DNA from: Escherichia coli
Lineage (GTDB): Bacteria; Pseudomonadota; Gammaproteobacteria; Enterobacterales; Enterobacteriaceae
Length of the DNA stretch: 64,000 nt
Reading direction: 5' to 3' (one strand)
NCBI RefSeq assembly: GCF_002854065.1
Contig: NZ_CP024147.1
Positions within the stretch are counted from its first letter, which is position 1. Each line of letters begins with the position of its first letter. Shown in pieces: positions 18,757 through 20,472 of this stretch. Under the pieces are notes generated by a model, which was not told the DNA's origin, did not search any database, and was given only the letters and a program-made list of their open reading frames with translations. The translations under genes and the position numbers were made by a program.

Positions 18757-20472
18757 TAAAATCCCTCAATCCAGACTCGGCCATGAAATACTACTGGAGG
18801 TTACAGATGGTGGAAATCGTTCTAAAACACTAGATTTCAATCGCTACAACTATTTATACTTCCCCACTCGAAATAAAATAAATAGAGGTCACAGTACATT
18901 TCAAGATAGATCAGTCAGCGCTGAATCGTTATATGTAGCATTCAGAGATTCAGACTACTCATCAGCCACAAAATATTATCTTTTTGAATACCTCAGGCAA
19001 TATATTGTATTTTGCGACAAGTGTCACCATCCCATTTTCACTAATGAATCCGTGCAGGCCTACTGTGATCTCCTTATTTATAAAAATAAATCAGGAATTA
19101 TTTTGAATAGTACTTATACTGCTATCATTAGTGCCACAAAACGCTTATTCGTTATGCTTGACTTACCTGGGCGGTGGTTTGATGAATTACCAACCTTAGG
19201 AAAGTCACAGGCACAGCCCTATAAGGCCTATAGTGACAATGATTTAAAAAAACTACTCCCTTTACTGAGGATATTTTTCAAGCAAATTTCCAATAAGTTC
19301 CTACAAGACCCCGCTTTGTATCTTTCTCAAGGTAAGAATGAAACTGATATGTTTTTCAGGTGGAATGGTAAAATATATGCAGTATATGGTAGTGTCGGGC
19401 AACTAATGGCTTCTGCTGTATATCTACTGTCTTACTATACATGGGCAAACACAAATACATTACTTTCTCTTGAAAGACCAGACATATGTGAAAGTAATGT
19501 AAATGGAGAATGGTACCAAATGCCAGCATTTAAGCGCCGGGCATTTAGAGTCATCACTATTCAGATCGGTGCCCACGACCAGATCAACATTCCAAAGTAT
19601 TCAATGGAATTTTTCAACCAACTTCTAAAAGTCTCAAAAGCTATTTCAGTTGAAAGTAACTTACTTTTTCAGTCCGGTTCATGTAATCGCATCACCCCAT
19701 TATCAGCGGTCCACTTACAAAATTTCAACAGTTTTCTCAAAAAGAACTTTAGATTAACTGATGATAAAGGACTTAGCTATCACCTGTAATATCGAGATTT
19801 CGTGCTACTGGTAGTCAATTTACGCAATTGCATTACTCTCATACACATAGTGCATCGCTATTAGGAAATTCACCGAAAACAACTCGCAAGCATTATTCAG
19901 AAGGGAATGAATACCAAAATCAGTCAATGCTCCAGGACTCTGTCTCTGTTTTTGCAGACAAGGCGGTAAATGGCGGGAATATAGAGACGTCTAAAAAAAG
20001 AATAAAAAGTGAACTTAATGTTGAGATTTTAACATATGAAAGTATGCTTAAAATGAAATCTCCACCAATGCGACAGGCCCACGGCAGTTACTGTAAAGAT
20101 CCATTCGGGGAGCAGGCTAAAAAGTTCTTGCTACGCGCCCAACGTCACGATTTGCTTTCTACAGAAAAATTTGCTTGCTCAGATCTACTGATGTGTTTTT
20201 CCTGTCCTCATCAAGTTGTGATAGCTGAACCTACTGATATTTGGTGTTTGCTGAGTTTTAAAGAATGCATAGAAGAGAGTATTTACAAGCATGTCAATCA
20301 CACTCATTTCCATAATAACTATGACTCTGTGTTGTCGGCAATTGAAAAAATTTTAATGAGTATTGATAAAAAAATACTTTCAAGTGCAACTCAAAAATTT
20401 CTCGATGAGGGTCCTCACCCTTTATGGAGAGACCAGTCATTTCTATATCCATATAGCAATAAGGATACATGA
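18749..20472 (+). pseudogene. Tyrosine recombinase, second of trio (ginB-like), interrupted by a frameshift/stop at ~19784-19789
   Basis: ORF 18749..19789 (frame 2) and ORF 19828..20472 (frame 1) overlap neighbours by ATGACTGA / ATGA; frame-1 part carries …RFRATGSQF…LLGNSPKTTRKHY, i.e. the catalytic box II/Tyr region. Confidence 0.55.

Follow-up and report, generated by a model that had tools for sequence, protein, structure and literature searches.

The stretch of DNA analyzed here (hereafter, the window) comprises 64,000 nucleotides of Escherichia coli contig NZ_CP024147.1 (RefSeq assembly GCF_002854065.1), and it raises the question of why the middle one of three adjacent recombinase-like genes is divided between two reading frames. 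This middle gene was identified as tfp, which belongs to a strand-biased circularizing integrative element (SE) with the core operon intA-tfp-intB-srap; all features of the element given below lie on the + strand. The 5' part of tfp (18749–19789, frame 2) encodes 346 aa (product P0121) and ends with ...DDKGLSYHL at a premature TAA (19787–19789), which was created by the frameshift. Frame 1 is open from 19777, immediately 3' of a TAG at 19774–19776; its translation reads LSPVISRFRATGSQFTQLHYSHTHSASLLGNSPKTTRKHY... (LSPVISRFRATGSQ...LLGNSPKTTRKHY...) and ends at 20472. This 3' part (19777–20472) corresponds to residues 344–574 of the intact protein, that is, its last 231 codons, and includes the invariant R350, R352, and Y383, N374, and the Cys/His-rich C-terminal region. 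The frames share 13 nt (19777–19789), and the joined parts encode 574 aa. The original prediction had described frame 2 as stopping at ...KGLSYHL-TAA with frame 1 carrying on, a −1 fusion as giving a protein of approximately 570 aa, and the downstream part as keeping its ATGA coupling to the third gene. All three descriptions agree with the sequence, and the ATGA was located at 20469–20472, where the stop of the 3' part overlaps the ATG of intB. As the deletion truncates Tfp, the stop now lies 680 nt upstream of the intB start. The RefSeq annotation of the 3' part covers 19927–20472 only, as a 181-aa ORF (WP_050438664.1). A separately translated C-terminal Tfp fragment is possible, with TTG at 19828 and ATG at 19927 as candidate starts.

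The nature of the lesion was determined by comparison with other copies. Complete E. coli genomes with the region were two only, CUWW06 and 100416. In the alignment, the window and CUWW06 read AGC-TAT, while 100416 reads AGCTTAT, and the extra T is also present in four of four Salmonella copies. The ancestral TT at 19777–19778 was thus reduced to a single T, which changed AGC TTA TCA to AGC TAT CAC. The tfp gene of CUWW06 is split identically to that of the window; in strain 100416, the extra T (GGACTTAGC-T-TATCACCTG) places the entire gene in a single frame, which is interrupted farther downstream by IS1. When T was restored at 19777/19778 in the window, a 574-aa protein was obtained that matched P0122, a protein of Salmonella found on 891 contigs, in each of its 574 residues (100% identity); the split is therefore not a chance pattern. 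Moreover, the repaired Tfp is colinear with 14 homologues (36–100% identity) and gap-free at the join, and the restored residues LSPV match the homologue consensus L.PVISRFRATGS. Since the intact allele occurs in E. coli 100416 and Salmonella and the homologues join without a gap, it was concluded that the lesion is a 1-nt deletion in a TT dinucleotide. The original prediction had placed the shift at CAC CTG TAA; the actual deletion lies approximately 10 nt upstream, in the TT pair at 19777/19778.

The deletion is recent and has spread clonally, and the intact allele is ancestral. Across a 6.8-kb core region, the window and a Salmonella copy (L004) differ at eight positions, including the tfp deletion; apart from the two inactivating changes, these are four amino-acid changes, one synonymous change, and one intergenic change. 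The exact 346-aa product was found on 123 contigs, which derive from NCBI isolates, from JGI and ENA metagenomes, and from Logan SRA assemblies, and the NCBI isolates carrying it are E. coli and Shigella dysenteriae. It adjoins dinQ in all eight distinct places examined. A 599/600-aa IntB and an 84-aa ORF accompany the broken tfp in seven of these eight places, and the remaining contig (L039) stops short within intB. A very recent inactivating mutation had been the first alternative of the original prediction, and it is borne out by a 1-nt deletion set against an otherwise identical intact allele. The alignment with intact homologues that had been proposed as a check gave a colinear join. The two-ORF arrangement among homologues, which would have spoken for another reading, was absent; the homologues are single ORFs, which favors recent inactivation.

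A sequencing or assembly error, under which the genome truly has TT and an intact tfp, had also been considered. Single-base indels are the commonest type of assembly error; however, the truncated 346-aa product on 123 contigs comes from several assembly sources, and the complete genome of CUWW06 shares the deletion. The site is a dinucleotide and not a homopolymer, and the deletion occurs together with an intB lesion of the substitution type. As the 123 contigs come from independent sources, a sequencing error was excluded, and the probability left to it is close to nil.

The split was also compared with programmed recoding, in which −1 ribosomal frameshifting or transcriptional slippage would supply full-length Tfp at a regulated low level in addition to the truncated form. 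Several features are compatible with this reading: the two frames share an overlap, no stop interrupts the downstream one, intB is still coupled through ATGA, and programmed frameshifting is used by IS elements in the same window, according to the IS1 annotation. In IS1 insAB', IS3-family orfAB, and dnaX, two overlapping frames can likewise be joined by a −1 shift. Unlike these systems, tfp has no slippery heptamer, its two-frame layout is not conserved, and an in-frame allele exists. Neither a slippery heptamer (X XXY YYZ) nor a homopolymer run was found in the 13-nt overlap at 19777–19789; as the overlap is only that long and lacks the heptamer, programmed frameshifting is not supported. No two-frame layout was found among the tfp homologues, namely, the 120 best matches, the alignment of 14, and the distant loci, and of the best 120 in the database, 115 are encoded by one ORF each, with 550–600 aa and a coverage of 93–100% of the repaired query. 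Moreover, a single base separates the broken allele from an in-frame allele with identical protein sequence, and a plain nonsense mutation co-occurs in the next gene. Programmed frameshifting or regulated truncation, as the original prediction had offered, is consequently not supported by the overlap or by the homologues, and we consider it extremely unlikely.

In addition to tfp, the other genes of the core operon were examined. The first gene, intA (17413–18756; RefSeq start at 17452), encodes an ordinary tyrosine recombinase of 447 aa (Pfam Phage_integrase, E = 3e-8) that could be aligned with XerC through HxxR...H...Y; the gene extends 8 nt past the start of tfp, and its position and size (434–447 aa) are kept in relatives. 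The third gene, intB (20469–22271), encodes a large tyrosine recombinase that also aligns with XerC over HxxR...H...Y. It is 600 aa long in the window and ends at a premature TGA (22269–22271), where Salmonella and E. coli 100416 have the ancestral codon GGA (Gly601). The intact IntB is 697/698 aa long in Salmonella (465+ contigs) and in E. coli 100416, and 683–707 aa in distant relatives. The cut-off 3' end of intB (22272–22565) remains open and in frame and is annotated as an 84-aa ORF (22311–22565). The nonsense codon removes the last 97 residues and uncouples srap (22558–23013; SE-associated recombination auxiliary protein, 151 aa), the start of which overlaps the ancestral intB stop. The position of srap corresponds to the CDS WP_032288336.1 of the RefSeq annotation in two near-identical E. 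coli copies. Both the tfp and the intB lesions disrupt the overlapping stop/start couplings of the operon. At the distant loci, sizes of 440–445 aa for IntA, 573–581 aa for Tfp, 683–707 aa for IntB, and 146–152 aa for Srap are retained. Pfam and NCBIfam searches with Tfp, IntB, and Srap gave nothing above threshold, the sole match being a weak SAM-like N-terminal domain in Tfp, and a plasmid collection searched with the gene trio gave no match. The part of IntB removed by the stop begins with HG..HSYC...C..C, and the C-terminal region of Tfp (window 20080–20472, residues ~445–574) has invariant C449, C477, C483, C486, H515, and H520. These Cys/His-rich C-terminal regions of Tfp and IntB are a possible candidate for a metal-binding domain. 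They look alike by eye; homology between them was not supported by BLASTP (E = 0.18).

The original prediction had called the middle gene a recombinase split exactly before its catalytic box II/Tyr region. Tfp has been described as a "tyrosine recombinase fold protein" without the RHRY catalytic set (PMC10214605). An AlphaFold2 model of the repaired Tfp was built from a 74-sequence alignment (pLDDT 75.7) and matched Cre, XerA, IntI, lambda Int, and XerH with a probability of 1.0 and TM scores of 0.45–0.59 over approximately 350–370 columns; on the strength of these model matches, the tyrosine-recombinase fold predicted for Tfp was confirmed. The break at residue 343 directly precedes the helices 348–362, 365–372, and 376–383, which carry R350, R352, N374, and Y383. 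N234, R350, R352, and Y383 are invariant in the 74 Tfp homologues, and N374 is conserved in at least 90% of them. When the R-H-R-H-Y positions were assigned by eye, Tfp had N234, V347/S349, R350/R352, N374, and Y383; the catalytic set thus assigned appears incomplete, in agreement with PMC10214605. In sequence searches, no Pfam Phage_integrase match was found in Tfp, a PDB sequence search with the Tfp profile gave no match even at E = 10, and hhalign of the Tfp profile against XerC/XerD gave only a low-probability match of the core-binding domain. A Smith–Waterman alignment of Tfp 337–395 with XerD box II (LLGNSPKTTRKHY/LLGHSDLSTTQIY) scored 27, compared with 22.9 ± 4.6 for shuffled sequences. 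As the score is within the shuffled range, Y383 may be regarded as a putative catalytic Tyr at most. The original prediction was therefore right about the position of the split, and Tfp has the fold and an invariant R350/R352 and Y383 downstream of the break; "recombinase" and "catalytic" claimed too much, the box II resemblance to XerD not being statistically significant. Downstream of the frameshift, CUWW06 has a G-to-T substitution (L001 10566, equal to window 19865) that changes LLGN to LLVN (G373V) and fits relaxed constraint after inactivation.

The locus was then compared with known mobile elements. Idola et al. 2023 had already recorded it: their Additional file 3, a list of tfp-srap blocks, gives E. 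coli NZ_CP024147.1 through WP_032288336.1 (srap) and WP_050438664.1 (the C-terminal fragment of tfp) (PMC10214605). The coordinates given there are offset from those of the window by exactly 4,416,000, and the window therefore probably corresponds to NZ_CP024147.1:4416001-4480000. In that study, Tfp matches shorter than 550 aa were discarded as truncated, and the element was neither named nor were its ends defined (PMC10214605). The tfp-srap synteny block is present at the locus with the gene order intA-tfp-intB-srap. As in SEs, the order of the four core genes is the same and their stops and starts overlap, the hosts are Gammaproteobacteria, and the target is split without duplication, with its central 6 bp kept upstream (attL) and a foreign 6-bp footprint at the other end. 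The direction of transcription of the core relative to the ends is the usual one. Unlike a typical SE, the window copy has a frameshifted tfp and a truncated intB, and approximately 25 kb of cargo lies between the attL (gor-side) end and intA instead of after srap; the core operon is thus not directly beside the attL (motif C) end. Of the relatives, L028 has the usual SE layout, and the Aeromonas relative has a smaller version of the layout with cargo before intA. The terminal inverted repeats, which in SEs are the imperfect motifs C and C', also appear weak compared with a typical SE: the ends ...TATGGGTA and TACCATGA... show by eye only a short imperfect inverted match.

Other elements with several recombinase genes share part of these features. 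GInt elements have three recombinase-like genes plus a small fourth one, with one protein lacking the catalytic set, and insert site-specifically. Table 1 of the SE study lists the GInt proteins as GinA, GinB, GinC, and GinD and the SE proteins as IntA, Tfp, IntB, and Srap, and no detectable sequence similarity between Tfp and GinC was reported (PMC10214605). The non-catalytic GinC is listed third, whereas the non-canonical protein of the present locus is second, as in SEs; the two classes were set apart by this order and by the published description. Tn554 (tnpA-tnpB-tnpC) and RIT elements (ritA-ritB-ritC) resemble the locus in having tandem tyrosine recombinases. In Tn554, an ordinary recombinase is paired with a large one and with a small auxiliary protein, and a 6-bp footprint is left (PMC10214605). 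However, Tn554 lacks a counterpart of Tfp and resides in Firmicutes, and RIT elements have no srap-like fourth gene.

The ends of the element were mapped by comparing insertion sites and hexamers (window 23700–23732; L003 7917–7940; L019 3835–3850; L006 14955–14985; L029 9950–9975; and L005). The window holds the right-hand ~23.7 kb (1–23713) of an element of approximately 26 kb in the gor 3' end, with the left end just outside the window. At gor in E. coli and Salmonella, and equally at the traU-traN site, the left boundary of the element is TACCATGAGAGG... and its right boundary is ...GTGTATGGGTA, and the comparison of insertion sites showed that the entire ~26-kb unit moves. A small SE bounded just upstream of intA was also considered, and a repeat search over 16900–23900, which includes the right end only, gave no convincing partner. 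Beyond srap, the element ends in a non-coding tail of 700 bp (23014–23713) with no long ORF and the right terminus ...CGTGTATGGGTA. The tail is identical between E. coli and Salmonella to 23713, except for one substitution and one 1-nt indel, and the divergence beyond this point follows the insertion site. In an Rfam scan of 16500–25500, only AgrB reached the gathering score and nothing was found within the SE, the tail included. The tail may hold putative binding sites of the recombination proteins.

In the case of gor, the empty E. coli target in K-12 reads GAAGA-GTTCGT-GACAATGCGTTAA. The target site GAAGA-GTTCGT-GACAATGCG is converted to attL GAAGA-GTTCGT-TACCATG and attR GGGTA-CTGCGT-GACCATGCG. 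The attL, GAAGA-GTTCGT-TACCATGAGAGG..., lies outside the window and was seen in CUWW06; at this junction on the left, gor receives a new 3' end from the element. At attR, ...GTATGGGTA (ending at 23713) is followed by the hexamer CTGCGT (23714–23719), the displaced original gor 3' end GACCATGCGTTAA (23720–23732), and then dinQ. The alignment with K-12 gor-dinQ identified the displaced segment as the right half of the target. The hexamer beside the right terminus is not the GTTCGT of the gor target center but an imported footprint. The same ~26-kb element occurs in Salmonella at gor and between traU and traN of a conjugative region, where the target reads GACTG-TTGTGT-TCGCTACG (L029), attL retains TTGTGT, and attR has GTTCGT. 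At both gor and tra, the target halves are split between attL and attR without duplication and with a 6-bp spacer, as expected of an SE. Moreover, the attR hexamers of the Salmonella gor copy (L005; TTGTGT) and of the tra copy (L006; GTTCGT) are the attL hexamers of the other site. The gor and tra hexamers therefore indicate that the central hexamer of the target stays upstream and the hexamer of the previous site is left at the other end, in accordance with the SE footprint rule of a 6-bp hexamer from the previous site (PMC10214605). These two-way hexamer links between gor and tra suggest, from sequence comparison, movement between the chromosome and a conjugative element. The circle junction attS would read ...GTATGGGTA-N6-TACCATGAG....

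The Salmonella tra copy was also considered as the ars region of the ICE SGI3/SGI-4. This assignment was rejected, as the common form of tra has traU adjoining traN and is free of the insert; the SE insertion at traU-traN is therefore a rarer variant. SE relatives were found in Aeromonas simiae (L027 56–6008) and Pseudoalteromonas agarivorans (L028 3227–6008), directly downstream of a gor-like pyridine-nucleotide disulfide oxidoreductase gene. As these distant relatives also lie downstream of a gor-like gene, the gor 3' end looks like a conserved target of this SE clade. The Aeromonas simiae copy has a SIR2-domain gene between gor and intA.

Considering the best explanation as a whole, we are highly confident that tfp of this SE suffered a recent 1-nt deletion, accompanied by a linked stop in intB, after which the arsenic island at gor would be a remnant that is fixed and decaying. 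In the E. coli/Shigella lineage, a T was lost from the TT pair at 19777/19778, so that translation ends after 346 residues. The last 231 tfp codons, with the helices of R350, R352, N374, and Y383 and the Cys/His-rich C-terminal region, now lie in the −1 frame, and the linked GGA-to-TGA stop in intB at 22269 is found in this lineage as well. In published work, circle formation needed intA, intB, and srap, and an intact intA-tfp-intB operon was concluded to be necessary from the failed complementation of intA and intB (PMC10214605). In the case of SE-6283, a tfp knockout was not obtainable (PMC10214605), and for this reason the Tfp requirement rests on the intact-operon argument. Given the published need for IntA, IntB, Srap, and an intact operon, the window copy is most likely immobile, that is, probably unable to form circles or transpose. 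Other copies have been inactivated in different ways: strain 100416 has IS3 in intA and IS1 in tfp, and intA of L034 is truncated by an IS. Together with G373V in CUWW06, this varied inactivation fits the neutral decay of a fixed island.

In place of neutral decay, the split could be functional, with the 346-aa N-terminal product (N-terminal and core-binding domains), an independently started C-terminal fragment, or both retained; for example, the fragments could attach to the ends of the element and so keep the arsenic island from moving. The allele does persist in a lineage sampled more than 100 times, and the downstream frame has no further stops. However, the lesion is too recent for the open frame to be informative, since the rest of tfp has no other changes. 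CUWW06 has, moreover, later gained G373V in the near-invariant LLGN motif, and sister copies were inactivated in unrelated ways by IS insertions, which fits neutral decay. A functional split is accordingly improbable. Similarly, we give little credence to the frameshifted tfp and the truncated intB being a selected "locking" state rather than the result of neutral decay. In such a state, the N-terminal part of Tfp, which is retained and binds DNA, would sit on the ends of the element and keep the arsenic island fixed at gor; if true, it would be an example of SE domestication driven by the host or the cargo.

With neutral decay as the preferred reading, the split gene is a case of ordinary recent pseudogenization in a member of a known mobile-element class, at a locus already in a published catalogue, and the tfp finding leaves the knowledge of frameshifting or recombinases unchanged. 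For annotation, the three adjacent "hypothetical proteins" are the tfp and intB pseudogenes of an SE and not separate genes or a recoding site, and the arsenic island that this E. coli/Shigella lineage carries at gor is best regarded as probably immobile. The frameshift is outweighed by a side result, namely, an ars-carrying SE that targets the gor 3' end, with hexamers linking the chromosomal gor to the copy in the Salmonella tra region; these links are evidence from natural isolates for the rule of 6-bp footprints that has been proposed for SEs. The by-products of greatest use are a corrected annotation and a map of the ends and footprints of this gor-targeting ars SE.

The cargo between attL and intA comprises two ars clusters, an LmuB-like ATPase, a helicase, and an HTH control protein. 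Its left-hand part (window 434–5336, and L017 5251–7612 to the left of the window) looks like a defence or control module, with an 870-aa AAA/SMC-type ATPase with LmuB-like matches (1862–4474), a ResIII helicase with weak PbeA-like matches, a VspR-like protein, and the HTH "control protein". In CUWW06, this left-hand cargo has an IS2 insertion. Beyond the element, comparison of window 24125–24343 with K-12 revealed that the chromosomal arsR and arsB were deleted and that the agrA/agrB repeat had collapsed to one AgrB-like copy (24144–24228). As a result of the arsR/arsB deletion, the native ars operon consists of arsC alone, and the island supplies two ars clusters. At 24404–25300, the 3' end of the chromosomal arsC is cut by IS1 (transposase ORF 24788–25291, minus strand), which alters its C-terminus. 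In one E. coli assembly (L018 15839–17934), the first ars cluster of the island is directly followed by slp, and a deletion has taken out the second ars cluster together with the SE core genes and the dinQ/arsC region.
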